Positions 1-15,687 of a stretch of DNA of 64,000 bases are shown here, piece after piece. Position 1 is the first letter of the stretch. Every line of letters starts with the position of its first letter. A program made the position numbers and the translations under genes. Source of the DNA: Candidatus Omnitrophota bacterium (GTDB taxonomy: Bacteria; Omnitrophota; Gorgyraeia; JAHJTE01); the NCBI GenBank assembly GCA_018830005.1, contig JAHJTE010000004.1, positions 16,792 to 80,791 on the forward strand, written 5' to 3'. Under the pieces are notes generated by a model that did no database searches, was not told the DNA's origin, and saw only the letters and a list, made by a program, of their open reading frames with translations.

Positions 1-247
1 AATAAATCAGCAAAACAACGAATTAATTGTTGCCATTAAAGATATGGGTAAAGGCATCTCAAAAGAATCGCTTCTTCATATCTTTGACCCCTTCTTCACA
101 ACCTCAAGCAAAGGAACAGGTTTAGGTTTATCTATTACTCATGGAATTATTAAAGAGCATGGTGGAAGAATTAAGATTGAAAGTAAACTTGGGATAGGAA
201 GTGAGGTTGAAATAAGGTTAATTATGCAACAGGCAACTCAATTATAA
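1..247 (+). CDS. Sensor histidine kinase, C-terminal HATPase_c fragment (5' end outside window)
   Basis: Translation ...LLHIFDPFFTTSSKGTGLGLSITHGIIKEHGGRIKIES carries the G2 box and ATP lid of the HATPase_c domain. The frame is open from the window edge and stops at 245-247. Confidence 0.7.
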   Translation, partial: INQQNNELIVAIKDMGKGISKESLLHIFDPFFTTSSKGTGLGLSITHGIIKEHGGRIKIESKLGIGSEVEIRLIMQQATQL

Positions 248-2378
248 AAGTTGTACCTTTTTTATATGTAGATTCAACTGAAATCTTACCCTTATGGTTA
301 TTGGTGACGATTTTTTGTATAACAAAAAGCCCTAAGCCAGTGCCTTTTTTTGCTGACGCTTTAGTGGTAAAGAATGGGGTAAAGAGCTTATCAAAATCTT
401 CCTTCTTTACACCCATTCCATTGTCTGATACTTTAATTTGTAATTTGTCATCCTTTTGTTGACCAAGAATATCAATTATTCCTTTATAATCATCTTGCCT
501 TAACTCTTCTTTTCTTTGTTTAATAGCAAAATAGCCGTTATCGATTAAATTAAAAAAGACCTCTTGAAGCTGAGTAAGATTCCCCTTTATTTTAGGTAGA
601 TTCTTACTGTAACTACGCTTGATTTCTATCTCACTTAATTTGACCTTGTATTGTGCCATTTCTAAGGCTGCATCAACAATTGAATCCAAAGAAACTGATT
701 CAAATCCTTGTTCTCCAGGTCTGGAATATTTAAGCAAACCCCTGACAATCTCTCCGCCTTTTTTTACGTTATCTTGTACCTTCTCTAATGCATGCTCGAC
801 CTGATTAAATACTTCTTCTATTTCCGCTGGAATCCTCCTTTTTTTAGTAATTTTTAAAGTATCAATTGTATCTCCTGCGATCATACTTAATGCCTGAAAT
901 CTATTATTTATTTGATGTGACAGACCATCTGCCATAGTTCCAACCGTAGCCATTTTTTCAGCTTGGAAAAGCTGTTCTTGTGTGCGTTGTACCTCTTCGT
1001 AAAATTGAGCATTTTCTATAGCCAGCGCTGCCTGATTAGCCAATGTAGTCAACACATTTAAGTCATCCTGAGTATACATCCTTCCGGTTTTTTTATCTCC
1101 TAAGGTTAAAAAGCCAAGAAGCGCATCTTCGACAAGACACGGAATAATCACTGATGCATTTAAATCTTTCATCACAAGCTCTAAATCGTTCATTTGAGAA
1201 TAAGTAAGATTGAGAAACTTTAATTCTTCATAAACAATTGGACATTGCTCATTACCAAGATACTGGATAAGAGATTCATTGACATCCAGACTTACCCTAT
1301 TCGAACTAATAAAACGAGTTGATTTTAGAGTATATTGATTTAAATTTTGATCAGACAAAAATACTTGAGCGTTGACTGTCTTAAGAGCTTTAGTTATAAA
1401 ATGCACTATAAGACCAAGAAGTTTTCTCAGATTTCTAATTTGGACCATCCCTTGAGACGCTTTAAGTAATAGATTGTGGGCATGTCTCTCATCGGCCAAA
1501 AGTCTATTTAGTGCCTTCTGTTGTAAGTACATAAATAAGTAAGGACCAGTGGTAGCAAACAAAAGCAGAGCCAACATTGGAACCCAAGTCCAACCTTTAC
1601 CAAAAATACTCATTAACCAATTTCTCCCCCAACCCGCTAGGCCAAAAGGAATGCCTAAGACTAAAGTATATACAACTCCAACAATCGCTCCTTTTGCAAC
1701 AGCAACCCTGATATCCATAATGCGATATCTTAAAATAGCATAGGTTGCAATAAGCGGATAGAAGACCATTATAATATTGAAAGGAAAAACTTTTATGCCG
1801 TATGTAGGTAGAAAATGGGAGCAACCACCAATAAATGCTATAAAAATAGGAAAAAGTAAATATTTAAGTTGGTTTTGTCTAGCTCCAGTTGAATTGATAT
1901 ATTCTTTAACTAAAATAGTGAAGGCATACAAAATAGAACTAAACCAAAGCAAGGTCGCGATAACATAAATACTATTAACTGCCCTGACGTAATAAAAAGA
2001 GTTGAACATGAACTCAAGTTTATATCCCATCTTATTTGAAAAATTTAGAAAGATAAAAAATATTGGATCAACAATATAGAAAAAGTATAATATTTTTCTT
2101 TTCTTAATTGCGCATAATTCTAACACCGTATGTAAAAAGGCTATGGAGATAAACATAGCCCAGAAATGGCCAAATTTCCACCAGAAAATCGCCCCATTAA
2201 TATCCAAAGTTTTATTGCCGACAAAAAATAAACTGAGGCCCCAAAATGCATTGGCAATATTAAATAAAACCCAATATTTATGAAGTTTTAGTTTACCAAA
2301 AATTGAAATTATAATGGCGAGAGTAAAGCAAGTAAAAAAGATTAAGCCACCAAATATTGATAATAGGCTTGGACTCAT
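222..2378 (-). CDS. Multi-pass membrane sensor histidine kinase (about 9-10 TM N-terminal domain, GAF-like domain, HisKA, HATPase_c)
   Basis: 718 aa. The hydrophobic N-terminal 290 aa forms many TM helices. The central region is GAF-like. HisKA is ATVGTMADGLSHQINN. The C-terminal DNGMGV...GTGLGLFVIQKIV ATPase motifs are present. It lies 21 nt downstream of the lipid operon. Confidence 0.8.
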   Translation of the reverse strand: MSPSLLSIFGGLIFFTCFTLAIIISIFGKLKLHKYWVLFNIANAFWGLSLFFVGNKTLDINGAIFWWKFGHFWAMFISIAFLHTVLELCAIKKRKILYFFYIVDPIFFIFLNFSNKMGYKLEFMFNSFYYVRAVNSIYVIATLLWFSSILYAFTILVKEYINSTGARQNQLKYLLFPIFIAFIGGCSHFLPTYGIKVFPFNIIMVFYPLIATYAILRYRIMDIRVAVAKGAIVGVVYTLVLGIPFGLAGWGRNWLMSIFGKGWTWVPMLALLLFATTGPYLFMYLQQKALNRLLADERHAHNLLLKASQGMVQIRNLRKLLGLIVHFITKALKTVNAQVFLSDQNLNQYTLKSTRFISSNRVSLDVNESLIQYLGNEQCPIVYEELKFLNLTYSQMNDLELVMKDLNASVIIPCLVEDALLGFLTLGDKKTGRMYTQDDLNVLTTLANQAALAIENAQFYEEVQRTQEQLFQAEKMATVGTMADGLSHQINNRFQALSMIAGDTIDTLKITKKRRIPAEIEEVFNQVEHALEKVQDNVKKGGEIVRGLLKYSRPGEQGFESVSLDSIVDAALEMAQYKVKLSEIEIKRSYSKNLPKIKGNLTQLQEVFFNLIDNGYFAIKQRKEELRQDDYKGIIDILGQQKDDKLQIKVSDNGMGVKKEDFDKLFTPFFTTKASAKKGTGLGLFVIQKIVTNNHKGKISVESTYKKGTTFIIELPVA

Positions 2379-2399
2379 AAGTTTTTAGCTTTTTTAAAT

Positions 2400-3848
2400 C
2401 TAAATTTTAAAAATTTCACCAAGAAGTATTTTTGCAGTTTCAATGCCGCTGTATGCGGCAGGGCTTACTCCGCTACTCCTGTTCAACCAATGCCCAGTTA
2501 AATACAAATTCTTTATTTTTGTTTTTTGTGAGAAATTGGGATCGCAAAATTGCGTTGTTGTATCTGCCCAGCCATACGCAGAACCTTTATAGTTCAACGT
2601 TGATTTAAATAGAGTAAAAGGAGTGGCAATGATTTTTATCTTTATATGCTCTGTAATATCTGGCAGTAATCTCTCAGCTAATTTTATCATTTTTCCACTA
2701 ATTACATTTTTTTTATTTTCATTCCAAAATCTTTCATTTACAAAAGGCATATTAACAAATAGAAATAAAGACTCTTTTGTGCTCCTTTTATCTAAGAAAG
2801 AGTTATTCTTTACAGATGAACTGGTTATTCCAATGTAATCATACTCCTTATTCAATAGATTAGTATAAATTTTCTCAATATTATTATAATTATTATTTAT
2901 AATCCAAATGTGTGATTTTAAATCAGGTAAATTATCCAGATCTTTACTGATTCCCAAATAAACTAAAAAAGCCGACAAAGACGTTTCTCTAGTATGTATT
3001 CTATTAGAAATTGTTTTAGGAACCTTCGTTGCATCGATAAGACTATGGAAAGTTTCATGAAGATCGCAAGCAGCTATAACAACTTTAGAAAAAATAGACT
3101 TTCCGCTTTCTAATATAACACCTCTAGCAATATTGTCTTCGAGTATAATTTTTTTTACCATTGTAGCTAAGGTAACGGTCCCTCCGAATTCAGAAAATTT
3201 ATTTGCTAAAGCATTTGAAAATTTCTGCATACCACCTAATGGGTAATACCCTCCATCAAAAATAAAGTCTCTATAAAGTAAATATGCCGCAAGAGTTGAT
3301 AATCGCGATGGAGGAACACCTGTATAACCTAATAATACAATAGATAATATAGTCTTTAATTCTTCATTAGTAAAATAGAAATCAAGGTTGTTCTTAAAAG
3401 AAGTGTTTCTCATTTTTGAAAGAGAAGTAATAGGAGAGAATAATATTTTTTCAAAAAATTTTTTTATAGCTTTTTCTTGTTTTGGAAAATACCTTTGCAG
3501 TTCCCCAATAGTTTTACCAACGCTACCATATAAGTTGACTTTATAATTTGGGGTTATTACAATATCTCTAATCTCATAATTAATAAATTCTAAATCATTT
3601 TTTAAGTCAAGTTCTTGAATAATTCTTTGCAAGCTACCGTCTTTACCACAACCGCTCAAAGAACAAACACAGGCATCAAAGAAAAAACCCTGTCTAACAA
3701 AAGAAGCACAATATCCTCCCGGACTTATATTTTTTTCCACAATTAAAGTGTTAACCCCTCTTTTTGCCAAATAACAACCACAGATAAGCCCACTAATGCC
3801 TCCACCAATAATCACTACGTCGTAATCACACTTATTAAAATTTTTCAT
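2400..3848 (-). CDS. FAD-dependent oxidoreductase, phytoene desaturase (CrtI)/amine oxidase family
   Basis: N-terminal dinucleotide-binding motif DVVIIGGGISGLICGCYLAKRG...VEKN..PGG. 482 aa. Paralogous to the upstream gene. Confidence 0.75.
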   Translation of the reverse strand: MKNFNKCDYDVVIIGGGISGLICGCYLAKRGVNTLIVEKNISPGGYCASFVRQGFFFDACVCSLSGCGKDGSLQRIIQELDLKNDLEFINYEIRDIVITPNYKVNLYGSVGKTIGELQRYFPKQEKAIKKFFEKILFSPITSLSKMRNTSFKNNLDFYFTNEELKTILSIVLLGYTGVPPSRLSTLAAYLLYRDFIFDGGYYPLGGMQKFSNALANKFSEFGGTVTLATMVKKIILEDNIARGVILESGKSIFSKVVIAACDLHETFHSLIDATKVPKTISNRIHTRETSLSAFLVYLGISKDLDNLPDLKSHIWIINNNYNNIEKIYTNLLNKEYDYIGITSSSVKNNSFLDKRSTKESLFLFVNMPFVNERFWNENKKNVISGKMIKLAERLLPDITEHIKIKIIATPFTLFKSTLNYKGSAYGWADTTTQFCDPNFSQKTKIKNLYLTGHWLNRSSGVSPAAYSGIETAKILLGEIFKI

Positions 3849-3862
3849 TTTATCGTTTTTGC

Positions 3863-5419
3863 TTATAAAGCAACTTTTCCATTCGTTAATTTACCCTTTA
3901 ACACAATATCAGAGAAAGAGGTGGCAGAAATTAGAGCACCCGGAATACCTGCGCCAGGAAAAGTTTTGGCGCCCACTAAAAACAAATTCTCTATAGGTGT
4001 CTTATTATGGAATCTTCTAAGAAGTGTTTGTTGAGGACTAGCTGCAATATCATAAATTGCTCCTTCTGTTGCATTAAGCCATTTTTCAAAAGAAACAGGA
4101 GTTAATACATTGCTAAGCTTTACTTTTTTTATAACCCAAAATTTCCTAATTTCTTTGATTACTAATTGAACGATTTCGCTCTTTAAATCTTCATATTCTT
4201 TCCTTCCATACAAATTTATAAATTTTTTCCATAAAATGTAATTTGCAGGCAGCCAACCAATATTAAAAATATAAATGTTCTCTGAATCAAAGTTATCAAA
4301 ATTGCTTAAGCAATTGATATTTACTGATAACACTGGTTTAGTATACGACTGTGAATTAAATTTAAACAACATCTTTAGTCTTTTTTCTAAATCTATGCGG
4401 AGTGGCAGTACTATCGTCCCAACAGACAAAAAGTCTCGATTTAACTCTGCCTCAGCTATCAAATGGATTTGTATCGCAGAACAAGACATCTTTAATTCTA
4501 CGGCTCTATTAATAAGATTTTGCGGTAAAAATCTTCTCTCGATTAATTCTAAAAATGTTTTTTTACTATCGATATTAGAGGCAATTTTTTTAGCGTAATA
4601 TTCATTATTATTTTTATCTCTAACCCCGTAAGTTACCTTTTTACTATTTAAAAGAATTTTATCAACTTCCGTGTTATACAATATTCTCCCACCTAATTCT
4701 TCAAAATTCGAAGCCAATATAACTGGAATCCTTCCAAACCCCCCTTTTACAAAACAGCTTTTATCTGTATGATATGCCCCTAATAAACATATCATATACA
4801 ACGCTGACACAGCACCTTTTTCTAATCCTAGGTAAAGCCAATAAACAGAAATAATTTCTTTCAACGCAGGGGAACTTATAAACCTATTTAAGAACTTTTC
4901 AAAAGTATAATTTCTGTATTTAAAAAGGTGCGGAAATAAAAATGGATACAAAAACAAAATAGACAAAGATGGATTAGAATAGCTTTTTACCGCTTCATGC
5001 TGCCATATTTTTGTTATTTCATTAAATAATTTTTTAATATTTTTATGCTCGGCAGGAAAATAAAGTTTTAATTCTTCGGCGTATTTACTAAAATCCCCGT
5101 AACAAAATATTGGTTTATTTTGATTTTTAGGTATATAAATAAAAGGTTTTTCTAATTCTAAAAATTCGAACCTTTCATTTATATTTAAATAATCAAAAAT
5201 TCTATTTACAACCGCCCCTTCTCTAATACCACATAAAGAATGGGTTATGTCAATTGGATAACCATCTTTATAGAAAGTAGTTACAGCTCCACCTGGTACC
5301 TGATTTTTTTCTAAAATCAAGACTTTCATGCCATTTTTGGCAAGTATATTACCAGCAGTTAATCCGCCTATACCAGCGCCGATAATTATTACATCATATT
5401 CGTCTTTTTTCATAGTCAA
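3863..5419 (-). CDS. FAD-dependent oxidoreductase, phytoene desaturase (CrtI)/amine oxidase family
   Basis: N-terminus DVIIIGAGIGGLTAGNILAKNGMKVLILEKNQVPGG (Rossmann GxGxxG). 518 aa. Its start overlaps the upstream KS gene by 4 nt. Confidence 0.75.
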   Translation of the reverse strand: MTMKKDEYDVIIIGAGIGGLTAGNILAKNGMKVLILEKNQVPGGAVTTFYKDGYPIDITHSLCGIREGAVVNRIFDYLNINERFEFLELEKPFIYIPKNQNKPIFCYGDFSKYAEELKLYFPAEHKNIKKLFNEITKIWQHEAVKSYSNPSLSILFLYPFLFPHLFKYRNYTFEKFLNRFISSPALKEIISVYWLYLGLEKGAVSALYMICLLGAYHTDKSCFVKGGFGRIPVILASNFEELGGRILYNTEVDKILLNSKKVTYGVRDKNNNEYYAKKIASNIDSKKTFLELIERRFLPQNLINRAVELKMSCSAIQIHLIAEAELNRDFLSVGTIVLPLRIDLEKRLKMLFKFNSQSYTKPVLSVNINCLSNFDNFDSENIYIFNIGWLPANYILWKKFINLYGRKEYEDLKSEIVQLVIKEIRKFWVIKKVKLSNVLTPVSFEKWLNATEGAIYDIAASPQQTLLRRFHNKTPIENLFLVGAKTFPGAGIPGALISATSFSDIVLKGKLTNGKVAL

Positions 5420-6714
5420 TCTATCTTCTTAAACACTGCTGCGGCGTTAAAGCCTGCAAATGCACAGCAGGTTTTCATTATTATATTAAGCTTGCTTTTT
5501 ATTTCTGTTTTTACTAAAGAAATATTAAATTTTGGATCTGGCTTATCATAGTTTAGCGTTGCTGGTACTATGCCATTTTTGAGTGCCAACAAAAGGATCG
5601 CCGCCTCTAATAAAGCACTACCACCTAAATTATGTCCCACATAAGGTTTAAAGGTTGAAATTAAAGGTTTTTTTTGATTTGTTTCAAAAACATCGGTTAT
5701 TGCCTTAGCTTCATAATAATCAATCGGCTGAGATCCTACACCATGCGGACAAAGAAAGTCTATCTTTTCTTTATCAATGCCACTATTTTTTAGTGCTTTT
5801 GAAATTGCTTTTTGATATGAGTTCCCTCCTATTTGGGGAACAGTAATCTTCCAGCCTTCAAGATCAAAACCCCCGCCTAGATATTCGGCGTATATTTGTG
5901 CCTTACGTTTTCTAGCATGTTCTAAATCTTCTATTGCAATGGCTGCACCACCATCGCCAAAAACAAGACCGTTACTATCTTTACAAAATGGCCTAACCAT
6001 TCCGTCAGGAGAATATATTCCTAACTCATGAAACCACAAGTACTTATATATATCAGGATAGTCTGAAGCTGCTATAATAACAGCTTTGGCTTGGTTATTT
6101 CTTATTATTTGACTTGCTGCTTCAATGGCGTATAAACCTGAAGCACAGGCATTATTAATAAATAATGAATAATTATGAATATTAAAGACTCTAGCAATGT
6201 GGAATAAATCTGCGAAGGTTTGAATATCGTATCCGCTTTTCAGGAAAGCGCGATAAAACTTATCAAAAAAAACCTTTTTAGAAATATCCTTTTTTCTTTT
6301 ATTTATTAGCATTTCGTAAGCGAGATCACTTACCTTAAAACCAAATGGCATTAGTCCAAGATTTTCGTGAGCCAATACCAGGCTGATGTTATTATCCTTG
6401 CGATTATACTCTAGCCCGCTGTCATCCAAGGCCAGCTTAATAGCAGCGATAAGATAATTTAAATCAATTATTTCTTCGCCCTCCTTCCATTCTTTAATAT
6501 CATTTAATTTGTCTTTATCTATTCCAAAATCTGAAATATCAAAATTTTCAACTTTATGAAAATAGAATTGATCCCAAATCTCACCATCAAGAGTGCATTT
6601 CTCAAGCTTTAGATTAGTTCTTTGCTGGAGAATGCCCTGCCAAAGTTTATCTTTGCCTATTCCAATAGAGCTTATGGGACCTATACCGGTTATAACAATT
6701 CTCTTATCAGGCAT
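5416..6714 (-). CDS. Beta-ketoacyl-ACP synthase-like condensing enzyme (KAS I/II superfamily, divergent, with insertions)
   Basis: 432 aa with active-site Cys (NNACASG) and two His (CPHGVGS, GHNLGG). The N-terminus has the thiolase-fold opening VITGIGPISSIG. Confidence 0.75.
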   Translation of the reverse strand: MPDKRIVITGIGPISSIGIGKDKLWQGILQQRTNLKLEKCTLDGEIWDQFYFHKVENFDISDFGIDKDKLNDIKEWKEGEEIIDLNYLIAAIKLALDDSGLEYNRKDNNISLVLAHENLGLMPFGFKVSDLAYEMLINKRKKDISKKVFFDKFYRAFLKSGYDIQTFADLFHIARVFNIHNYSLFINNACASGLYAIEAASQIIRNNQAKAVIIAASDYPDIYKYLWFHELGIYSPDGMVRPFCKDSNGLVFGDGGAAIAIEDLEHARKRKAQIYAEYLGGGFDLEGWKITVPQIGGNSYQKAISKALKNSGIDKEKIDFLCPHGVGSQPIDYYEAKAITDVFETNQKKPLISTFKPYVGHNLGGSALLEAAILLLALKNGIVPATLNYDKPDPKFNISLVKTEIKSKLNIIMKTCCAFAGFNAAAVFKKID

Positions 6715-6717
6715 AGC

Positions 6718-6984
6718 TTATACTTTATTTTTTTTCTCTAGAGCTTCTTTTAAGACTTTAAGTGCTTCTGCAATAGTAGTAATTTGAGGAATCTGTTCAT
6801 CTCTGATAGAGACCTTGAACTTCCGCTCAATCGCAACTGAAATCTCGATTGCTTTAATCGAATCAACGCCTAAATCCTTCCAAAAATTTGCATCTGGCTT
6901 TAATTCTTTAGTATCTCTACCAGTGACATTAGCGACTAATTCTATTAATTCTTGTTTAAGCTTATCAAGCATTTCTTCTGGCAT
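6718..6984 (-). CDS. acpP: Acyl carrier protein
   Basis: 88 aa. DLGVDSIKAIE phosphopantetheine-attachment Ser motif. Confidence 0.85.
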   Translation of the reverse strand: MPEEMLDKLKQELIELVANVTGRDTKELKPDANFWKDLGVDSIKAIEISVAIERKFKVSIRDEQIPQITTIAEALKVLKEALEKKNKV

Positions 6985-6991
6985 GTAGACA

Positions 6992-8206
6992 TCATCTCCT
7001 TTTGTATTTCTTTATTGCAAGTGAAGAATTATTGCCACCAAAGGCAAAACCATTATTCAAGGCAACATCTACTCTTTGTTTTCTTGCGGCATTAGGAACG
7101 CAATCGATATCACACTCAGGATCAGGCGTCTCAAAGTTTATTGTCGGAGCAATTACGTTATTTTCTACGCTTAAACAACAGACAATTGCTGAAATTGCAG
7201 AAGCCGCACCCATGGTATGACCCAACATTGACTTTATGGCGCTAACCGCTACCTTTCTGCCGTTGAAAACTTTTTTTATCGCTGCTGACTCTACTCTATC
7301 GTTATGCTTTGTGCCTGTTCCATGAGCACTTATATAATCTACATCATCAGGGGTTAAATCTGACTCTTTTAGTGTATTAATCATACAATCGACTATTCCT
7401 TCAACCTGAGGATTTGTCATATGAAAAGCATCACAGCTTAAACCATAACCTAATATTTCAGCATAAATAAGCGCATTTCTTTTAAGGGCACTCTCTAGGG
7501 TTTCCAATATTAGCATACCTGCCCCCTCACCTACTATCATACCTTTTCTATTCTTATCAAATGGCTGACATTTTTCAGGTGCTACAGCTCGTACTTGATT
7601 AAAGCCAGTAAAGGAAAGATAGGAAAATGCATCTGAGCCACCCACAATAACTAAATCTGCCTTATCCAATTGCAAGAGATCAAAACCATAACCTATGCCA
7701 TAATTACCAGCTGCACAAGCAGTAGTAAAAATGCGATTTATGCCCTTTGTTTTTAATTCAATTGCCATGCTAGAAGAAATATTATTTACAGGATATTGCA
7801 TTATAGACCACTTTTCCACTTTATCGTGTCCATGTTTTGTCCAAATAATATCCATTTCTTCTATTTCCTGGGCCTCGCCACCAGTTGTACCAATGCAGAT
7901 TGCTATACGTAGAGATCCAAGTCTATTAGCATTTAATTTGGCGTCGTCCAAGGCTAATTTTGCCGCAGCAATAGCAAGACGCGAAGCCCTACCCATCAAT
8001 TTTATCTTGTTTTTGCTCATGAATGATTCACAATTAAAGTCTTTAATCTCACCACCAAAATGAGTAAATTGATTCGTGGTATCAAATGACTCAACCAATG
8101 ATATACCGGATTTGCCTTTAATTAAATTGTCCCAAAAGACATCTTTACCGATGCCAATTGATGAAACGACTCCTAGACCTGTTACTACTACCCTTTTCTT
8201 TTTCAT
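6992..8206 (-). CDS. fabF: Beta-ketoacyl-ACP synthase II (FabF-like)
   Basis: 404 aa. Canonical Cys-His-His triad motifs TTACAAGNYGIG, AHGTGTKHND and GHTMGAAS. Confidence 0.85.
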   Translation of the reverse strand: MKKKRVVVTGLGVVSSIGIGKDVFWDNLIKGKSGISLVESFDTTNQFTHFGGEIKDFNCESFMSKNKIKLMGRASRLAIAAAKLALDDAKLNANRLGSLRIAICIGTTGGEAQEIEEMDIIWTKHGHDKVEKWSIMQYPVNNISSSMAIELKTKGINRIFTTACAAGNYGIGYGFDLLQLDKADLVIVGGSDAFSYLSFTGFNQVRAVAPEKCQPFDKNRKGMIVGEGAGMLILETLESALKRNALIYAEILGYGLSCDAFHMTNPQVEGIVDCMINTLKESDLTPDDVDYISAHGTGTKHNDRVESAAIKKVFNGRKVAVSAIKSMLGHTMGAASAISAIVCCLSVENNVIAPTINFETPDPECDIDCVPNAARKQRVDVALNNGFAFGGNNSSLAIKKYKRR

Positions 8207-8640
8207 TTTTTAACTGCAAATACTAACTCAGCCTCTGCTATCTGCTTATCTTTAACAAATGCTTTTGTACTAATAAAAGCGCCCGTTGGCAATAATTTTA
8301 CTGTTTCTGCTTCAAGGCTTAGCTGATCTCCCGGAAAAACAGGATGTATAAAACGAGCCTTTATTGAACCTAAATAATAATTTGGAACATTTACTAGCTC
8401 ATCCTCATATCCGCTGTGATAAAGCACAATGGAAGCCTGGGCCATGGCTTCAACAATTGAGGTGCCGGGCATTATAGGATTTCCAGGAAAATGACCCTGC
8501 AAAAAACTATCATTAATACTTACATTTTTAATCGCCACGACGCGTTTTCCTGGCTCCAACTCTATTACCCTATCAATTAAGAGCATTGGATGTCTATGTG
8601 GCAGAACCTTTTTTATTTGATCTATATCAAGTGTCTTCAT
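8203..8640 (-). CDS. fabZ: 3-hydroxyacyl-ACP dehydratase (FabZ/FabA hot-dog fold)
   Basis: 145 aa. HFPGNPIMPGTSIVEAMAQ catalytic His motif. Its start and stop overlap the neighbouring genes by 4 nt each. Confidence 0.85.
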   Translation of the reverse strand: MKTLDIDQIKKVLPHRHPMLLIDRVIELEPGKRVVAIKNVSINDSFLQGHFPGNPIMPGTSIVEAMAQASIVLYHSGYEDELVNVPNYYLGSIKARFIHPVFPGDQLSLEAETVKLLPTGAFISTKAFVKDKQIAEAELVFAVKK

Positions 8641-9875
8641 TTTAGTTTTCCTATTATTACCACTGTATTTGCCCCGTTAGGGCCAAAGGCATTAATCATT
8701 ATTCTGTTTAATTTATTCTTTCTACTTTTATTTGTTACGTAATTAAGATTGCAATCAGGATCTTTTTCCTGGTAATTTATAGTTGGCGGAATAAGGTCTT
8801 TGTTTAGAGCGCCGATAGCTGCAACTGTAGATAATCCACCTGAGGCACTAAATGTTTCACCTAAGATAGACTTAGGGGCAGTGATGCAAACCTCATCAGC
8901 AAAGTTACCGAAGACATCTTTAATAGCCTTTGTTTCAATTCGATCGGCGTCTTTAGTTGAGTTTGCATTTGCGAAAATGCAATCTATGTCTTCGGGTTTC
9001 AAATTTGCATCCGCTAGCGCCAATTGCATTGCCTTTACCATACCTTCGCCCTTTGGATTGAATCTGTAGAATTTAATCGGGTCAAAGCAAGAACCGATAC
9101 CAAGAACTTGGGCATAAATATTAGCCTTACGCTTTTTTGCAGAATCCAGTTCTTCTAAAATAAGAACAGTTGAGCCTTCAGAAAAAATAATGCCGTTTCT
9201 TCTTTTATCAAAAGGACAAGATAAAGGCTCGGGGTCACCGTTAAGACCAGATAGATAATTGAGCTTATAAAATCCAAGAAAGGTCTGAATGCAAAAATCT
9301 TCTACTGCACCCGTAACAACTGTATTTGTTCTTCCTAGATTTATAAAATCGCGCGCATAATCTAATGCGTCTAGGGCGGCACACATTCCTGTTGAAATTG
9401 TAGAATTAAAGCCTTTGATTTTAAATCTAATACCTATACGGCTTGCAGGAGAATTACCAACAGTGCTCGGGAAGACTGACGGATTAACATATCTGGGACC
9501 TTCCCTTAAAGATTCTTTGTCAAATTCTGAAATACTATGAAGACTCCCAAATGTCGTGCCCACAGAAACTCCAATCTGTTTAGTATTAGTTTCATTTATA
9601 TCTAATTTGGCATCGTCAATAGCAAGTTTTACAGCTGAGCTTAATAGAAGTGTCGCCCTGTCTAAATCCATTATGTTTTGAGTGTTCAATATTTGTTTAG
9701 GATTAAAATTGCTTATTTCGCCGCCAATTTTAACCTTTAGGTCTGAGGTATCAAACAGAGTAATGGGCTTAAATCCGGATTTCCCGTCCATAATGGATTG
9801 CCAGTATTCGTCTTTACCTATTCCAATAGGCGAGATGACGCCAATTCCGGTTATAACAGTTCTGCTCTTTTTCAA
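8637..9875 (-). CDS. Ketosynthase-like protein with degenerate His dyad (chain-length-factor-like / non-decarboxylating KS partner)
   Basis: 412 aa with thiolase fold and a Cys retained (STGMCAALDAL). The HGTGT box reads ANANST and the GH box reads GE, so both catalytic His are missing. Confidence 0.7.
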   Translation of the reverse strand: MKKSRTVITGIGVISPIGIGKDEYWQSIMDGKSGFKPITLFDTSDLKVKIGGEISNFNPKQILNTQNIMDLDRATLLLSSAVKLAIDDAKLDINETNTKQIGVSVGTTFGSLHSISEFDKESLREGPRYVNPSVFPSTVGNSPASRIGIRFKIKGFNSTISTGMCAALDALDYARDFINLGRTNTVVTGAVEDFCIQTFLGFYKLNYLSGLNGDPEPLSCPFDKRRNGIIFSEGSTVLILEELDSAKKRKANIYAQVLGIGSCFDPIKFYRFNPKGEGMVKAMQLALADANLKPEDIDCIFANANSTKDADRIETKAIKDVFGNFADEVCITAPKSILGETFSASGGLSTVAAIGALNKDLIPPTINYQEKDPDCNLNYVTNKSRKNKLNRIMINAFGPNGANTVVIIGKLK

Positions 9876-10615
9876 GTTGCTAGGCCTCCATCAACAATAA
9901 AAGTTTGGCCGGTTATGTAATCAGCTAAATCAGAAATTAAGAATTTGACTACTTTAGCTACCTCTTCAGGATTTCCAAACCTTCCTAAAGGAATTCGTTC
10001 TAGCTCCTTGTCTTTCATGGTTTCATTCAAACTAGACAACATATCCGTTTTGATAAACCCAGGAGCAACTGCATTTACCCTTATGTTGTAAGGTGCCACC
10101 TCTTGAGCCAATGCCTTTGTAAAGCCTAATATAGCAGCCTTAGCAGCCGAATAATTCGTCTGCTTTGCTATACCCCTAATACCGCTCACTGAACTTATAT
10201 TAACTATTACACCAGATTTTCTTTTTAAAAAATCCACTATAATTGAACGAGTAATATTAAAGACTCCTCCTAAATCAACCCTTATTACCTTTTGCCAATC
10301 TTCTTGCTCCATAAACGCCAAGGCCTTATCGTTAATGATACCGGCATTATTAACCAAGATATCTATGGAATCGAAATCTTTTTTAATGTCATCGACCCAT
10401 TTCTTAACACTCTGGAGGTCTTCGATGTTAACTTCGTATCCTTTTACCTTAACCTCATCTGATGATAACTCTATCTCAATCTCTTTAGCCAAATCTCTGC
10501 TTTTTAGATAGTTAAATGCTATGTTAACTCCCTCTCTGGCAAGTTCATTGACTATTGCTCTGCCAATGCCTCTCGTACCTCCAGTAACGATGGCTGTTTT
10601 ATTCTTACCCTTCAT
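9872..10615 (-). CDS. fabG: 3-oxoacyl-ACP reductase (SDR family, FabG-like)
   Basis: 247 aa. TGGTRGIGRAI Rossmann motif, NNAG, and YSAAKAA catalytic Tyr-x3-Lys. Confidence 0.85.
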   Translation of the reverse strand: MKGKNKTAIVTGGTRGIGRAIVNELAREGVNIAFNYLKSRDLAKEIEIELSSDEVKVKGYEVNIEDLQSVKKWVDDIKKDFDSIDILVNNAGIINDKALAFMEQEDWQKVIRVDLGGVFNITRSIIVDFLKRKSGVIVNISSVSGIRGIAKQTNYSAAKAAILGFTKALAQEVAPYNIRVNAVAPGFIKTDMLSSLNETMKDKELERIPLGRFGNPEEVAKVVKFLISDLADYITGQTFIVDGGLAT

Positions 10616-10797
10616 TTTATGACTCCTCGCATTTTTTTGTTAATCCACTCATCAAGAAATCGTTTTGAAAAGCGCCAGTCGCCCCCTAATTTAAATGCCG
10701 GGATTCTACGCTCCCGGGCATACTTCTTTACAGTAAAAGGGTGAAGCTTTAAAATTCTAGCTACTTCCTTTGTGGTTAATATATCACTATCTATCAT
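10612..10797 (-). CDS. Small helix-turn-helix DNA-binding protein (excisionase/MerR-like HTH_17 domain), candidate operon regulator
   Basis: 61 aa. TTKEVARILKLHPFTVKKYARERRIPAFKLGGDWRF matches excisionase-family HTH. The first gene of the operon; its stop overlaps the fabG start (ATGA). Confidence 0.65.
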   Translation of the reverse strand: MIDSDILTTKEVARILKLHPFTVKKYARERRIPAFKLGGDWRFSKRFLDEWINKKMRGVIK

Positions 10798-10834
10798 TTT
10801 GCAATTGATGAAAAAACATGCTAAATATTAACTA

Positions 10835-10906
10835 TTGTCAATCGTTGCTATTCGTTGTTTTACGGAATTATTAATATAGCATTGTTGTTAAATGTTGTCA
10901 AGCGTT
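10835..10906 (-). promoter_or_regulatory. Two direct repeats AACGnTTGACAA (10835-10846 and 10895-10906), candidate operator sites
   Basis: The plus strand reads ttgtcaatcgtt and ttgtcaagcgtt, 60 bp apart. One copy overlaps the predicted -35 and the other sits in the 5' UTR. Confidence 0.45.
10873..10900 (-). promoter_or_regulatory. Sigma70-like promoter TTGACA-17 nt-TATATT reading into the HTH/fab operon
   Basis: Minus-strand sequence cgcTTGACAacatttaacaacaatgcTATATTaat. Its -10 box lies about 75 nt upstream of the HTH ATG at 10797. Confidence 0.5.
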
Positions 10907-11016
10907 ATTTTATGGAGACATAGATAGTCATGGGTAAGATGATATAGATTATCCTAGATTAAGAATTAGAGAGGTCTGAAGGATTGGCAGGAAATTAGAA
11001 GGTTAAAGACGTGGCT

Positions 11017-11250
11017 TTACTCCTTAATCTCAGCAAGGGCATCGCCGACATTAACAGTATCGCCTTCTTGAACTAAGATTTTCGAAAGTGTACCGCTGGC
11101 AGAAGAAGGAACATTAAACGTTGCCTTATCTGTTGCTGCTTCAACTAAGTCCTCTCCTTCTTTAACTGCCTCACCTTCTTTAATATGCCAGAAGGTTACT
11201 ATTGCCTTGGTAATACCTTCACCCAGTTCTGGTAAGATTACTTGTTTCAT
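11017..11250 (-). CDS. Free-standing lipoyl-attachment domain protein (E2-type lipoyl domain)
   Basis: 77 aa. The EDLVEAATDKATFNVPSSASG motif holds the lipoyl-lysine. Its start overlaps the lipB stop region. Confidence 0.7.
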   Translation of the reverse strand: MKQVILPELGEGITKAIVTFWHIKEGEAVKEGEDLVEAATDKATFNVPSSASGTLSKILVQEGDTVNVGDALAEIKE

Positions 11251-11947
11251 TCTTTACTCCTTTATTTCTTTCTGTTTTGATATTTAAATTAAAAACTTTA
11301 CAAAAATTATCCATTAGTTTATGTTTAAATACGTTGAAATCAACACTATATCCTAACTCTTTAGCCACTGAAGTCATTTCAACATCCATTCCACAAGGCC
11401 GAATATAGGAAAATATCTTTAGATTATTATTTACATTAATAGTTAAGCCGTGATATGTAATCCAATGACTAATGCCGATGCCGATAGAGGCAATCTTTTT
11501 ACTTCCAGCCCATACGCCTCTTTTATCCTGCACAACGTGTGCCCTTAGGCTAAATTCCCTAAGCGTATTGAGTATAACATGTTGAAGATTATTTAAAAAA
11601 ACATGGATGTCCTGGTGTTTTCTCATCTTTAAATCAAAAACAGGATATATCGTCAACTGCCCTAATTCATGAGCCGTAATATCTCCCCCGCGATCAATCT
11701 TAAAAAAATCAACGCCCTTTGCATTTAAGCTATTTGGATCACACAAGAGGTTATTGATATTTCCAGATCTTCCAAGGGTAATAACAGGAAAATGTTCACA
11801 GATAATCAAGGCCTCGTTAGATAATCCAAGCTTTAATTCCTCAAGGGACCTTTTTTGTAAATGGTAGGCTTTTTTATAGGAAATCTTTCCAAGATCGATT
11901 ATATCACAGTCAAATGTCATTTTTTCTGTGGCTTGCTTCGAGTGCAC
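11219..11947 (-). CDS. lipB: Octanoyltransferase (lipoyl(octanoyl) transferase LipB)
   Basis: 242 aa with FPVITLGRSG, RGGDITAHELGQL and HGLTINV motifs typical of LipB. Confidence 0.8.
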   Translation of the reverse strand: MHSKQATEKMTFDCDIIDLGKISYKKAYHLQKRSLEELKLGLSNEALIICEHFPVITLGRSGNINNLLCDPNSLNAKGVDFFKIDRGGDITAHELGQLTIYPVFDLKMRKHQDIHVFLNNLQHVILNTLREFSLRAHVVQDKRGVWAGSKKIASIGIGISHWITYHGLTINVNNNLKIFSYIRPCGMDVEMTSVAKELGYSVDFNVFKHKLMDNFCKVFNLNIKTERNKGVKNETSNLTRTG

Positions 11948-12867
11948 TAATGCGGTAATTTTTTGGTAAGCTCCTTGATTGTCTGCGCAGTAAGCCTTAA
12001 TGTTTCCTCTTCTTCTTTATTTAAAGCTAGGGTGATTATTTCCTCGATACCTGATTTTCCTATCTTTGCAGGTACACCCAAACAGATATCAGAGATGCCG
12101 TATTCACCTTTAAGATATGCGGCTGCACAAATAATCTTTTTTTCATCTTTAGCAATTGCTTTAACAATTTCAAATATAGCTGCCGAAGGCGCAAAATAGG
12201 CACTGCCGCTACCATAAAGAGAGACAATCTCTGCGCCTCTTTCAACTGTCAAGTCAGATATTGTTTTAATCTCTTCTTTTGTTGCAGACTCTGCCAAAGA
12301 CACATCTTTAACATAAGTCAACCTATCCAACGGCAGCATACCTCTTCCGTGGCTGGCGATGACCTGGGCATTAATGTCATTAATATTCTTATCAAACTTT
12401 GAAGCTATTAAGTTCGCAAAACGGGCTGAATCCAAACTATTTCCCATTCCGATTAATCGCTTTGAGTCAATCTGGGTGAGTTTTTTAAAATAATAAACCA
12501 TTAAATCCAATGGATTTGTAACTATAATTACGATTGCATCTTTAAGCTTAGATTTTATTTTTGTCGCAATCTCTTTAATTAAATTAGCGTTTTTGGCTAT
12601 CAGGTCTTCCCTGCTCATGCCAGCTCGACGAGGAAAACCTGCGGTAATAACGATAATTTCACTTTTTTCTACTTGATTGATATCAGATGTGGCAATGATT
12701 TTTTGGGGGGATTTGGAAAAATAAAGACTATCGGAAATATCTGCGGCCTTGGCCTTGGCAATATCCTCTTTAATATCAATTAGGGTTACATCTGCCAGGT
12801 GAGAATCTATAATGCGGCTTGCAAGCAGTCCCCCGACATTACCAGCGCCAATTATGCTAACTTTCAT
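11947..12867 (-). CDS. mdh: Malate/L-lactate dehydrogenase (LDH-like MDH family)
   Basis: 306 aa. MKVSIIGAGNVGG N-terminus, ITAGFPRRAGMSR substrate loop, IVTNPLD. Confidence 0.85.
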   Translation of the reverse strand: MKVSIIGAGNVGGLLASRIIDSHLADVTLIDIKEDIAKAKAADISDSLYFSKSPQKIIATSDINQVEKSEIIVITAGFPRRAGMSREDLIAKNANLIKEIATKIKSKLKDAIVIIVTNPLDLMVYYFKKLTQIDSKRLIGMGNSLDSARFANLIASKFDKNINDINAQVIASHGRGMLPLDRLTYVKDVSLAESATKEEIKTISDLTVERGAEIVSLYGSGSAYFAPSAAIFEIVKAIAKDEKKIICAAAYLKGEYGISDICLGVPAKIGKSGIEEIITLALNKEEEETLRLTAQTIKELTKKLPH

Positions 12868-12869
12868 TT

Positions 12870-13952
12870 TTATAATTCCTTGATAATCGCCTCGGCCATC
12901 TCGCTGGTGCCTACTGCAGTGGGATCATTGCGGTCAGGCTTCAAATCATAGGTTACAGACTTACCTTCTTTTACTACCTTGATTAATGCATTCTTTAATC
13001 GTTGACTTGCTTGTTTTTCATTTAGATAATCTAGCATCATTACTGCAGATAGTATTGTTGCCGCAGGATTTACCTTGTTCTTCCCAGTATACTTCGGAGC
13101 TGCGCCGTGAACAGGTTCAAATAACGCTAATTCATCTCCAATATTTGCACCCGGGGCCACCCCTAAACCTCCTACTAAGCCAGCGCAAAGATCAGAGATT
13201 ATATCTCCATAAAGATTAGGCAGTGCCAAGCAATCAAAATTCGTGGGCCGAAGCACAAGCTGCATTGATAAATTATCTACTATGGTCTCCTCAAAATCAA
13301 TTTTCCCTTTGTATTTAGAAGCGATCTGGCGGCCGCATTCCAGAAACAATCCATCAGAATACTTCATAATATTGGCTTTATGAACTGCTGTAATTTTTTT
13401 CCTTTTATGTGCAATTGCATATTCAAAGGCAAAGGTAAATAATCTTTTTGAAGCTGATTCAGAAATTGGCTTTAGAGAAATCGCAGAATCAGACTTTATA
13501 TCCCTGCCAGTTGTCTTTTTCGTAAGATTGATAAGCCCTTTTACCTCTTTTGAGCCTTTCTCAAATTCAATTCCGGCATATAGATCTTCTGTATTCTCCC
13601 TGAATATTAATATATCAATGTCAGGATTAATGCTTCTTATTCCAGGATATGCCTTGGCAGGACGCAGGCAGACAAACAAATCCAGTTTTTGACGCAACTG
13701 AACATTAACAGAACGATATCCGCCTGCAACTGGAGTGATAATCGGCCCTTTAAGGGCAACTTTGTTCTTTCTGATGGAATCTAGAACCTCTTGAGGTAGA
13801 ATCTCGCCCTTCTCTTTTAAGGTAACGCTGCCGGCATTCTTTATTTCCCAATCTATCTTTACACCGGTTGCATCCACGCATTTTCTCGCAGCAGCGGCAA
13901 CTTCAGGTCCAATGCCATCACCAGGAATTAAGGTAACTTTGTGTGTACTCAT
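12870..13952 (-). CDS. leuB: Isopropylmalate/isocitrate/homoisocitrate dehydrogenase family enzyme (LeuB-like)
   Basis: 360 aa. N-terminal IPGDGIGPEV, then NLYGDIISDLCAGLVGGLG. Adjacent to leuD. Confidence 0.75.
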   Translation of the reverse strand: MSTHKVTLIPGDGIGPEVAAAARKCVDATGVKIDWEIKNAGSVTLKEKGEILPQEVLDSIRKNKVALKGPIITPVAGGYRSVNVQLRQKLDLFVCLRPAKAYPGIRSINPDIDILIFRENTEDLYAGIEFEKGSKEVKGLINLTKKTTGRDIKSDSAISLKPISESASKRLFTFAFEYAIAHKRKKITAVHKANIMKYSDGLFLECGRQIASKYKGKIDFEETIVDNLSMQLVLRPTNFDCLALPNLYGDIISDLCAGLVGGLGVAPGANIGDELALFEPVHGAAPKYTGKNKVNPAATILSAVMMLDYLNEKQASQRLKNALIKVVKEGKSVTYDLKPDRNDPTAVGTSEMAEAIIKEL

Positions 13953-14452
13953 TTTAATTTTATTGTCCCGTACTTTTTGAAATGGTTGACTATTCCTCCA
14001 TCTGCAATTAGTCTCTGCATAAATGCAGGAAGAGGCCTAATGTTTATTATAGACTCTGTCTTAATATTGCGAATAACGCCTTTATCAAAGTCCAATTGCA
14101 ACTGATCATTATCCTTAATTGCCGAGGTATCAGCCTCAATTAAAGGCAAGCCAATATTAAAAGAATTTCGATAGAAAATTCTTGCAAAATTCTTAGCAAT
14201 AAGGGCAATAACGCCAGCTTCTTTAATAACTAAAGGGGCCTGTTCCCGAGAAGAGCCCATACCAAAGTTCTCACCCGCAACCAGGATTGTTGAACCTGGG
14301 GTTATCTTATTTATAAAATCAGGATCAAGGTCTTCCATTAAATGCTGTGAAAGTTTCTTTATATCTGTAATTTGAAATTTGTATCTTCCAGATATAATCG
14401 TATCCGTGTTGATATTATCACCTAATTTAATTACTTTTCCGACTAGTTTCAT
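13949..14452 (-). CDS. leuD: 3-isopropylmalate dehydratase small subunit (archaeal-type LeuD / aconitase swivel domain)
   Basis: 167 aa. [12 protein letters not shown], then [14 protein letters not shown]. Confidence 0.8.
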
Positions 14453-14460
14453 CAGAGATA

Positions 14461-15507
14461 TTATAGGCTCTTAAATTCAGCTGGATTTTTTACCTTACTT
14501 AGAGCAACCTCTTCTGTGATCAAACCCTGGGTATATAATTCCTTCAATGATGTTTCCATCAATTTCATTCCGAATTGTTTTCCTGTCTGCATTAATGTCG
14601 GGATCTGCTCAATCTCTTGTTCTCTAATCAGGTTTCGTATTCCAGGTGTGCCGACCATAATCTCAGTTGCTGCTACTCTTCCCTGACCAGTCGCACGCGA
14701 CAGGAGCAGCTGTGAGACAACACCTTGCAAGCAGTCAGCCAACTGCAATTTGACCTGTTGCTGCTGATGTGGAGGAAAAACATCAATGATTCTTTCGATT
14801 GTCTGAGGCGCATCAGGAGTATGCAATGTTGTTAAAACCAAATGACCTGTTTCTGCAGCAGTTAGGGCTGTGGAAATTGTTTCAAGATCCCTCATCTCCC
14901 CTACCACAATAACGTCAGGATCTTGACGCAAGGAGTGCTTTAGCGCCTCTGAGAACGAATGGGTATCAGCAAAGACCTCACGTTGTTTAATAACACTTTT
15001 CTTGTTATGATGTATATATTCAATTGGGTCTTCAATAGAAATTATCATATCCTGCCTTTCTTCGTTTATCAAATCCACCATTGCCGCCAGGGTTGTGGTC
15101 TTACCTACACCCGTAGGGCCAGTAATCAAAACTAGACCGTTTGGCCTTCTTGCTAAGGCAGCAAGTATCTTAGGTAGACCCAATTCTTCCAGCGTGGGAA
15201 TCAATAAAGGTATTCTTCTAAAGGCGGCCTCAACCGCACCCTTTTGAACATGGACATTAACTCGGAAACGATCGATGCCAGGTAAGGATAGAGATAAATC
15301 TAGTTCCCATTGCTTTTCAAATTTTTCTTTTTGTGCATCATTTAAGATGCTGTAGATCATTTTCTTTAATTTCTCTCGGTTTAGTTCTTCACGCTTAGTA
15401 TAGATTAACTTTCCATCAATACGCAAAATTGGAGGCATATTCTCTGTTAAGTGCAAATCAGAGGCCTTGCTTTTGATTGTTAGCATTAGAAGTTCTCTTA
15501 AGTCCAT
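14461..15507 (-). CDS. pilT: Twitching-motility ATPase PilT (type IV pilus retraction, secretion ATPase family)
   Basis: 348 aa. Walker A GPTGVGKTTTLAAM, Asp box, His box. PilT length. Confidence 0.8.
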   Translation of the reverse strand: MDLRELLMLTIKSKASDLHLTENMPPILRIDGKLIYTKREELNREKLKKMIYSILNDAQKEKFEKQWELDLSLSLPGIDRFRVNVHVQKGAVEAAFRRIPLLIPTLEELGLPKILAALARRPNGLVLITGPTGVGKTTTLAAMVDLINEERQDMIISIEDPIEYIHHNKKSVIKQREVFADTHSFSEALKHSLRQDPDVIVVGEMRDLETISTALTAAETGHLVLTTLHTPDAPQTIERIIDVFPPHQQQQVKLQLADCLQGVVSQLLLSRATGQGRVAATEIMVGTPGIRNLIREQEIEQIPTLMQTGKQFGMKLMETSLKELYTQGLITEEVALSKVKNPAEFKSL

Positions 15508-15687
15508 AATCTTCTCCTTTTAATTTTTTAATGACAACTAAATGTATATTATTATACCATTTTTATCTGAAAAACATATTCCCTATCAAGTTTAACAGCG
15601 ATAGCCTTATAGAGAACAAAATCATAAAACAAAAACGCCTTAATCTAATTATCCTTAAAGATGAAGGATTACTTCACTTACAAAAAA

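Follow-up and report, generated by a model that had tools for sequence, protein, structure and literature searches.

The region described here is a stretch of 64,000 nucleotides from an uncultured Candidatus Omnitrophota bacterium represented by a metagenome-assembled genome (MAG; GenBank assembly GCA_018830005.1, contig JAHJTE010000004.1, positions 16,792 to 80,791), hereafter the window. Between positions 222 and 10797 it holds ten open reading frames (ORFs) on the minus strand, all in the same direction and all recovered by an ORF check together with Pfam. In operon order they encode a helix-turn-helix (HTH) protein, the ketoreductase (KR) FabG, a ketosynthase (KS)-like protein (KSmut), the dehydratase (DH) FabZ, an active KS (KS404), an acyl carrier protein (ACP), a third KS (KS3), two flavoproteins of the CrtI type (PDH_A and PDH_B) and a histidine kinase with seven transmembrane segments (7TM) and a GAF domain (Table 1). 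The successive junctions measure -4, -4, -4, -4, +7, +3, -4, +14 and +21 nt, thus with five overlaps of 4 nt, and the one at PDH_A becomes +2 rather than -4 if the ATG of the public gene call replaces the TTG start. A preliminary description of the locus had proposed a ten-gene, one-strand operon with 4-nt overlaps and gaps of at most 21 nt; every ORF and junction was found as described, and the gene content given there is matched by the Pfam domains of all ten ORFs. The best-scoring known relatives of the cassette proteins are those of Cluster I of the anaerobic ammonium-oxidizing (anammox) bacteria (kuste3603-3608), which comprises amxACP, amxFabZ, amxFabF2, amxFabFmut, a phytoene-dehydrogenase homolog and a B12-dependent radical S-adenosylmethionine (SAM) enzyme. 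The operon is rather probably the Omnitrophota version of this cassette, which resembles a fatty acid synthase (FAS).

Table 1. Genes and control features at the operon, listed in operon order with the flanking kinase and the upstream sites last.
Feature	Position	Strand	Basis
HTH_17 protein, 61 aa, excisionase/MerR-like, first operon gene	10612-10797	-	Pfam PF12728, 6e-15; TIGR01764 above cut-off
FabG, 3-oxoacyl-ACP reductase (KR)	9872-10615	-	Pfam adh_short/KR
KSmut, KS-like, 412 aa, dead partner resembling a chain-length factor, amxFabFmut ortholog	8637-9875	-	Pfam ketoacyl-synthase N + C; dead triad
FabZ dehydratase, amxFabZ type	8203-8640	-	Pfam FabA-like hot-dog; tunnel Ile
KS404, active KS, 404 aa, amxFabF2 ortholog	6992-8206	-	Pfam ketoacyl-synthase N + C; 9s5h_B match
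ACP, dedicated	6718-6984	-	Pfam PP-binding
KS3, third KS, 432 aa	5416-6714	-	Pfam ketoacyl-synthase N + C; intact Cys/His/His
PDH_A, CrtI-superfamily FAD protein	3863-5419	-	Pfam Amino_oxidase/NAD_binding_8
PDH_B, CrtI-fold FAD protein, kuste3607-type homolog	2400-3848	-	Pfam Amino_oxidase/NAD_binding_8
7TM-GAF histidine kinase, last operon gene	222-2378	-	Pfam GAF + HATPase_c
Second histidine kinase, convergent, 3' end, cut by window and contig edge	1-247	+	56% identity to L008 kinase
Predicted sigma-70-like promoter, TTGACA-17-TATATT, extended TG	10873-10901	-	Consensus match, 11/12
19-nt direct repeat, two copies	10828-10846 and 10888-10906	-	84% identical, 60 nt apart; one overlaps the -35 hexamer

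The window proteins were compared one by one with the Cluster I proteins of one Brocadiaceae and one Scalindua genome (loci L010 and L011); the result that settled their identity came from solved structures. KSmut matched chain C of the PDB entry 9s5h without gaps (382 bits; next match 278), and KS404 matched chain B of the same entry with 491 bits (best FabF 332). Against the genomic proteins, KSmut was 47% identical to the FabFmut of Brocadia and Scalindua (367-373 bits; Synechocystis FabF 269) and KS404 was 54% identical to Scalindua FabF2 (456 bits; Synechocystis FabF 42%, 313 bits). In a neighbour-joining tree the KS sequences formed four clades, namely KS3, the FabF2 type, canonical FabF and the dead KS type, and the window and anammox proteins fell together in both the FabF2-type and the dead-KS clade. 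The catalytic triad Cys/His/His, kept in KS404 and KS3, is replaced by Met/Asn/Glu in KSmut. The changes of His to Asn and His to Glu are the same as in kuste3606, the triad of which is Val/Asn/Glu (PMC2649909). A neighbouring Cys in KSmut that might look catalytic is not conserved in the orthologs, so that the non-catalytic KS partner proposed earlier is borne out. KS404 keeps most of the residues to which the crystal structure assigns a place in the tunnel or the metal site, and KSmut keeps the F-x-x-T-V tunnel motif of the chain-length factor (CLF) side. All three window KS remained below the FabF equivalog cut-off of TIGR03150 (422, 368 and 202 bits; cut-off 493.75), whereas KS404 passed the looser subfamily model PRK07314 (418.7 against 387).

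The structures 9s5h and 9s5i show that kuste3605 and kuste3606, the two FabF homologs of Cluster I, form a heterodimer resembling a KS/CLF (preprint 10.64898/2026.05.19.726425). According to the same preprint each protein is inactive alone, the two together decarboxylate malonyl-ACP and form acetoacetyl-ACP, and the pair favours C6-C8 probes. A KSmut search of 1.84 billion representative proteins returned dozens of clusters with dead triads of the form x-x-Glu, and the anammox and Omnitrophota proteins had the same nearest representatives. Fused didomain proteins of about 800 aa, consisting of an active KS (Cys/His/His) and a dead KS in a KS-CLF-like arrangement (P0243, P0247-P0249 and about 40 others), are also related to the window pair.

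FabZ carries the second signature of the anammox cassette. An Ile replaces the canonical tunnel Gly (EAMAQASIVL), and at amxFabZ positions 69, 96 and 115 the residues are Ile, Ile and Leu, with the loss of the basic residues of the ACP patch (96 and 115); the numbering is that of Scalindua amxFabZ, with an E. coli FabZ sequence as the guide. The identity to amxFabZ is 40-42% (121-123 bits). Dietl et al. singled out the tunnel Ile (Ile69) as anammox-specific and found that amxFabZ turns over chains longer than C8 poorly (PMC10139942). The window ACP is 39-44% identical to amxACP (43-45 bits), and its top PDB match is amxACP (7auf) at 49 bits, tied with ordinary ACPs. It lies below all NCBIfam cut-offs for AcpP (TIGR00517, 49.8 against 70.45; NF002148, 56.3 against 71). 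FabZ, for its part, passes the NF000582 cut-off, and FabG scores 295.9 with TIGR01830, 2 bits under the cut-off of 297.75, and 264 with NF009466 (cut-off 222). Orthologs of FabG with 56-61% identity occur in the Omnitrophota loci L012 and L013 and in L014, a locus treated below.

KS3 has an intact triad, and inserts remodel its cap over the substrate tunnel and the dimer interface. It is 100% identical to a protein encoded on a 94.6-kb contig of a Candidatus Omnitrophica MAG. Its homologs make up at least 120 clusters at 62-78% identity, and every named one belongs to the Omnitrophota; among the matches listed, the KS3 clade is confined to this phylum. A scan of a genome collection with KS3 as query and exact peptide patterns returned five loci. 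In the Omnitrophota loci compared, KS3 is always followed by the genes for a PDH_B-type protein and a kinase.

The two flavoproteins differ in their ties to the anammox cluster. PDH_B is 32-33% identical over its full length to the Cluster I phytoene dehydrogenase homolog (255-261 bits; CrtI and CrtD structures 66-85), and PDH_A is 26-27% identical to the anammox proteins (162-164 bits). PDH_A is 48-54% identical to proteins in L012 and L013 and thus a paralog present in a subset of Omnitrophota; the KEGG-based names of its homologs are retinol saturase (retinol 13,14-reductase) or prolycopene isomerase. Both have the CrtI-type three-domain FAD fold, confirmed for PDH_B, and both lie below the crtI_fam threshold (TIGR02734, cut-off 238.1; PDH_A 143.4 and PDH_B 146.8), on which account the carotenoid family was rejected. 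No domain of crtB or crtE type was present in the scanned flanks, and the neighbours are FAS-type genes by Pfam. The two CrtI-like desaturases of the preliminary description are therefore CrtI-like at the level of fold, whereas a desaturase pair was not upheld, as PDH_B alone is a conserved partner. The wider family contains enzymes of desaturation, of redox-neutral cis/trans isomerisation (CrtISO) and of saturation (RetSat). With PDH_B alone conserved and PDH_A a separate paralog with saturase or isomerase names, desaturation, isomerisation and reduction are all possible. The phytoene dehydrogenase proteins kuste3607 and kuste3336 of Kuenenia did not replace CrtI when phytoene, the only substrate tried, was offered (PMC4790861).

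The last gene encodes a kinase with about seven hydrophobic segments in residues 1-245 and with intact H-box (His488), N, G1, F and G2 motifs. Its orthologs, annotated HisKA_7TM, are 35-51% identical and occupy the same position in six loci, and the HTH_17 gene also heads the cluster in L009 and L012. No response regulator is present in the window. Such regulators adjoin the kinase in L007, L012 and L013, and in L008 one accompanies the convergent kinase. Position 1 of the window falls within a second, convergent kinase, a 215-aa fragment of which is 56% identical to the HisKA_7TM kinase of L008 that has a regulator upstream, and the missing regulator is therefore probably an edge effect. The kinase had been described as lacking a response regulator, which is true of the window, and its orphan status is probably apparent only, since the orthologous clusters have one. 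The recurrence of a membrane sensor kinase in these clusters suggests, by likeness to DesK, a feedback from the membrane.

A promoter and operator belonging to the operon had also been proposed. The promoter-like site in Table 1 is the best match in positions 1-11400 and lies 76 nt 5' of the HTH start codon in a gap of 219 nt, and the 19-nt repeat beside it could be an operator; a strong site and a repeat are thus there, although both assignments come from consensus and pattern. An Rfam scan revealed no RNA element in or near the operon, the only hits being two tRNAs at 54.3-54.6 kb.

Enzymes expected of a complete pathway were sought in the operon, in the scanned parts of the window and in 10 kb past its right end, the latter taken from another assembly, of this organism or a near-identical one with the same PheA, in total about 74 kb. 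No FabD, FabH or known enoyl reductase was found in the operon, as stated in the preliminary description, or elsewhere in these 74 kb. Nor was a cobalamin radical-SAM enzyme present in the window (tblastn E > 0.4) or in the six other Omnitrophota loci. A B12-binding radical-SAM protein of 465 aa is encoded about 6 kb past the right end (L017:3759-5156) among ruvABC, lexA and rpoD. With 24-25% identity to the Cluster I enzyme and these housekeeping surroundings, it was set aside as a candidate for the missing cyclase.

The six other Omnitrophota loci are L002, L007, L008, L009, L012 and L013. In L012, a contig of 1.87 Mb, the same ten genes occur in the same order, with an additional gene following the HTH gene and with a regulator directly after the kinase. 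L013, L009, L008 and L002 hold close variants, and L007 has only ACP, KS3, PDH, kinase and regulator together. The proposal that the gene order be looked for in related genomes is thus answered by full order in one locus and variants in the others. The block ACP-KS3-PDH_B-kinase is found in every locus compared, that is the window and the other six. The extra gene between the HTH gene and FabG encodes 331-339 aa, occurs in L012 (3794-4789) and L009 (5046-6065) and is not in the window. It is related to the cyanobacterial long-chain acyl-ACP reductase (PDB 6jzq, 4e-10) and the N-terminal domain of PigE (4ppm, 4e-16), which suggests that the product is released as an aldehyde in these lineages and points to a channelled, specialised product.

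Several of these clusters have further contents of their own. Toxin-antitoxin or abortive-infection modules (HEPN/NTase, AbiEi/AbiEii) lie inside the cluster in L008 (3840-4554), L009 (11382-12825) and L013 (7224-8481). Upstream of the main cluster in L008 is a second set (1244-6697) consisting of a dead KS (Tyr/Cys/Glu), FabG, ACP, FabZ and an active KS. The module of L007 (1-9581) follows an oxidative-stress block with a hybrid-cluster protein, rubrerythrins, rubredoxin, a flavodiiron protein, glutaredoxin and a thioredoxin-reductase-like gene. In L012, the genes that follow the kinase and regulator (15657-19452) encode an HD_5 phosphohydrolase, a glycosyltransferase like monogalactosyldiacylglycerol synthase and a lipid A-type acyltransferase, so that the cluster there abuts membrane-lipid genes.

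Outside Omnitrophota, the cassette of KS/CLF, FabZ, ACP and PDH was detected in Poribacteria and two other lineages, each time with different tailoring genes; Poribacteria was the one taxon name attached to the ten best representatives, and the lineages of L014 and L016 were guessed from GC content and neighbouring genes. L014 has FabG, dead KS, FabZ, KS, ACP and PDH in this order, followed by a membrane sensor kinase of different architecture, and L015 (Poribacteria) has the same cassette. L016, which appears Firmicutes-like (SLH and SpoIIT neighbours, GC 0.36), contains at 8755-21242 a cassette of KS/dead KS, ACP, FabZ and PDH, accompanied by two additional KS, a pair of B12 radical-SAM genes, a BcrAD/BadFG-type activator and two HGD-D (2-hydroxyacyl-CoA-dehydratase-like) subunits. 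In radical-SAM content L016 is nearer the anammox cluster than the Omnitrophota cluster is. The tunnel Ile of FabZ is retained in nearly all compared cassettes.

The genes around the operon are chromosomal in character, with a region of ribosomal-protein and rpoBC genes, leuBCD-type genes, PlsY and genes of aromatic amino acids. Directly 5' of the operon and on the same strand (11017-11947) are genes for the octanoyltransferase LipB and a free-standing lipoyl domain of 77 aa (motif ATDKAT). In L009 a lipoyl-domain gene likewise adjoins the HTH gene, an arrangement that may be connected with the preference for C6-C8 in the anammox homologs. Between the leuD-like and leuC-like genes (16140-22091, minus strand) lie genes for an RHS-repeat/FG-GAP protein of 1983 aa and a PilT-like ATPase. 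The segment 54291-56303 of the minus strand holds two tRNA genes, PlsY (acyl-phosphate:glycerol-3-phosphate acyltransferase) and a CDP-alcohol phosphatidyltransferase; the presence of the last two indicates that ester phospholipids are made from acyl-phosphate derived from acyl-ACP.

The reading that we favour, and hold to be somewhat better than an even chance, is that the operon encodes a dedicated acyl-ACP assembly line of the Cluster I type rather than being a locus for carotenoids, aryl polyenes or canonical FAS. By analogy with the anammox biochemistry, KS404 and KSmut would pair as a KS/CLF-like heterodimer, decarboxylate malonyl-ACP on the dedicated ACP, give acetoacetyl-ACP and extend short chains. 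No FabH would be needed, because such a pair makes acetoacetyl-ACP from malonyl-ACP. FabG would then reduce the 3-keto group and the narrow-tunnel FabZ dehydrate the product. KS3, with its intact triad and remodelled cap, would handle different intermediates, probably longer or unsaturated ones. PDH_B may act without O2 on C=C or allylic positions of the chain, and PDH_A likewise in this lineage; isomerisation or desaturation to an unsaturated chain is preferred here, with enoyl reduction a close second. The product would be a specialised acyl chain for a membrane lipid, and its output may be adjusted by the HTH protein together with the 7TM-GAF kinase, which is embedded in the membrane and would act with a response regulator encoded nearby. 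Ladderanes are very probably not made, since the cobalamin radical-SAM enzyme is missing.

Several points weigh against this interpretation. FabG, FabZ and KS404 score close to canonical thresholds of hidden Markov models (HMM). The cluster is conserved across the phylum and has housekeeping surroundings, and with no other fab genes in the 74 kb it could be the main, if unusual, FAS. The regulatory tie to the kinase comes from synteny only, and the role given to the flavoproteins is entirely one that we infer. In vitro, no elongation past acetoacetyl-ACP was seen with the anammox pair (10.64898/2026.05.19.726425), and E. coli expressing kuste3603-3608 showed no detectable change and no new lipid (PMC4790861). 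No member of this cassette type, anammox included, has a demonstrated product.

A bolder form of the favoured interpretation, possible but doubtful, makes the cassette a self-sufficient FAS without FabH and FabI, ancestral to anammox Cluster I. Priming would be by the KS/CLF pair, a CrtI-fold protein would reduce the enoyl group or introduce O2-independent cis-unsaturation that KS3 elongates, and the membrane-sensing 7TM kinase would exert control. If so, ladderane synthesis would be the same pathway with a B12 radical-SAM enzyme added.

The operon may instead be a non-canonical primary housekeeping FAS, in which the KS/CLF pair replaces FabH, KS3 elongates long chains, a CrtI-fold flavoprotein serves as enoyl-ACP reductase and FabD and acetyl-CoA carboxylase are encoded elsewhere. 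We consider this unlikely, though it is the chief rival. With PDH as the reductase, the minimal cassette of L014 would supply each FAS step with a single protein; PDH_A relatives bear the KEGG-based name retinol 13,14-reductase and the family includes saturases. The KS3 homologs, in their at least 120 clusters at 62% identity or more, have only Omnitrophota among the named ones, the neighbourhood is of housekeeping type with PlsY on the same contig, and the 74 kb hold no other fab genes. Omnitrophota MAGs are reported to have the capacity for fatty-acid synthesis, and the supplement of the same study contains no fab gene names (PMC8542988). According to the preliminary description, affinity to ordinary fab genes together with the lack of a canonical fabD/fabH/fabI set elsewhere in the genome would have made the operon simply the primary FAS. 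On the first of these points, the KS pair and FabZ are nearer anammox Cluster I, whereas FabZ passes NF000582, KS404 passes PRK07314 and FabG falls 2 bits under TIGR01830. Against a primary FAS, we know of no CrtI-family enoyl-ACP reductase. The ACP is under every AcpP threshold, some Omnitrophota clusters include an acyl-ACP reductase-like gene or two KS/CLF sets, and three genomes have toxin-antitoxin modules within the cluster. That the operon has its own kinase and HTH protein, moreover, suggests conditional expression. The bulky tunnel Ile of FabZ is linked in amxFabZ to poor turnover beyond C8 (PMC10139942), and anammox bacteria retain a full canonical type II FAS beside the cassette (PMC2649909). 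Should the operon prove to be the main FAS of the phylum, it would represent a new fatty-acid route without FabH or a known enoyl reductase.

Less probable still is a highly reducing type II polyketide synthase (PKS) for a conjugated polyene or polyunsaturated acyl chain, in which KS/CLF, KR and DH iterate with no reduction and the flavoproteins extend or isomerise the conjugation. This was the reading of the preliminary description and is the hypothesis of Rattray et al. 2009. The ACP-KS3-PDH module of L007 stands beside oxidative-stress genes, and polyenes are known antioxidants. CrtI-type enzymes, furthermore, dehydrogenate carbons that are allylic to a double bond. No support was found, however, for an affiliation with aryl polyenes and flexirubin: the Ape-type KS 7f27 (165 bits) and the actinorhodin KS scored 162-166 bits against KSmut, compared with 382 for amxFabFmut, and FlxB gave 262.8 (cut-off 340). 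HMM thresholds led to the rejection of the aryl-polyene, flexirubin and cispentacin families, and the flavoaffinin polyene cluster of Clostridium thermocellum was discarded as a relative, being a type I/II hybrid without the cassette genes. Starter-unit, export and lipid-anchoring genes of the Ape or flexirubin type are lacking in the operon, and long rigid polyenes would be hard to reconcile with a narrow-tunnel FabZ and with homologs that prefer C6-C8. The hosts are dark-living anaerobic fermenters for which a pigment has no obvious use, and kuste3607 and kuste3336 were not desaturases in the sole test, on phytoene (PMC4790861).

It is very improbable that the operon is a short-chain (C8) acyl-ACP factory feeding lipoate synthesis in the manner of mitochondrial FAS. 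In its favour are the LipB and lipoyl-domain genes just 5' of the operon on the same strand, the recurrence of the lipoyl-domain gene immediately 5' of the HTH gene in L009 and the fact that the anammox homologs prefer C6-C8, but this adjacency occurs in only two of the seven loci, ten genes with three KS, two flavoproteins and a kinase would be excessive for octanoate, and KS3 and the PDH proteins would have no role unless PDH is the reductase. That ladderane lipids are made, as the antiSMASH class label implies, can practically be dismissed: all but one of the six protein families of Cluster I are represented, and a B12-binding radical-SAM gene occurs about 6 kb to the right of the window, but no such gene is in or near the cluster in the seven Omnitrophota loci, the distal one has only distant identity and housekeeping surroundings, and ladderanes are known from anammox bacteria only.

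The kind of cluster is itself already known and has been flagged in Omnitrophota. Unusual FAS clusters were described in Kuenenia in 2009, with synteny in Desulfotalea and a proposed anaerobic route to polyunsaturated fatty acids (Rattray et al.; PMC2649909), and antiSMASH surveys list ladderane clusters in Omnitrophota MAGs and other non-anammox phyla without analysis (PMC9902471). The gene content can thus no longer be said, as it was at first, to match no described pathway, while the ladderane-type analogy drawn at the same time has turned out to be real homology, with the KS pair, FabZ, one flavoprotein and probably the ACP closest to anammox Cluster I. In the literature searched, three things appear to be new: the gene-by-gene evidence that features called anammox-specific are shared, the arrangement peculiar to Omnitrophota, in which KS3, a second PDH, the HTH protein and the 7TM-GAF kinase take part, and a natural version of the cluster without a radical-SAM enzyme. 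Ladderane biosynthesis has been an open problem for more than 20 years, a 2026 review lists the pathway as unknown, and the structural papers describe the candidate cluster as confined to ladderane producers. The hallmark features, namely the KS/dead-KS pair, the tunnel-Ile FabZ and the adjacent CrtI-fold flavoprotein, in a compact, conserved operon of a non-anammox phylum without radical SAM indicate that these features are not ladderane-specific, which narrows the ladderane-specific step to the radical-SAM enzyme.

Compared with known systems, the operon shares with canonical type II FAS the FabG, FabZ and KS404 at or near NCBIfam thresholds, and differs in having no FabD, FabH or known enoyl reductase, in its one dead KS and in an ACP and three KS below equivalog cut-offs. 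With the aryl-polyene proteins ApeO/ApeC/ApeR and the ishigamide proteins Iga11/Iga12 it has in common a KS/CLF, KR, DH and ACP set without enoyl reductase and, as with ApeR, an extra stand-alone KS; the sequence affinity, in contrast, is to FAS and anammox proteins, the operon lacks genes for aryl starter, export and anchoring, and no CrtI-fold flavoproteins belong to those systems. Relative to the CrtI/CrtD/CrtISO/RetSat family, the window PDH proteins fall below crtI_fam, have no isoprenoid context and presumably use acyl-ACP as substrate. The DesK-DesR system of the Bacillus fatty-acid desaturase offers a likeness in that a multi-pass membrane kinase is genetically coupled to an acyl-saturation enzyme, whereas the window kinase is of the 7TM-GAF type and its link is syntenic only. 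The closest system remains anammox Cluster I, with which the operon shares the pair of active and dead KS (His to Asn, His to Glu), the tunnel-Ile FabZ with a non-basic ACP patch, an adjacent CrtI-fold flavoprotein and probably the type of non-canonical ACP. The gene order is KSmut-FabZ-KS-ACP in the window and ACP-FabZ-KS-KSmut in anammox Cluster I, the dead KS has Met at the Cys position where the anammox proteins have Val or Thr, and the host is not an anammox bacterium. The operon is without the radical-SAM gene and adds FabG, KS3, PDH_A, the HTH protein and the 7TM-GAF kinase. As it carries its own FabG, it may be more tractable for the study of the cassette product and of CrtI-family action on acyl-ACP, and it constitutes a natural comparator for the ladderane pathway.

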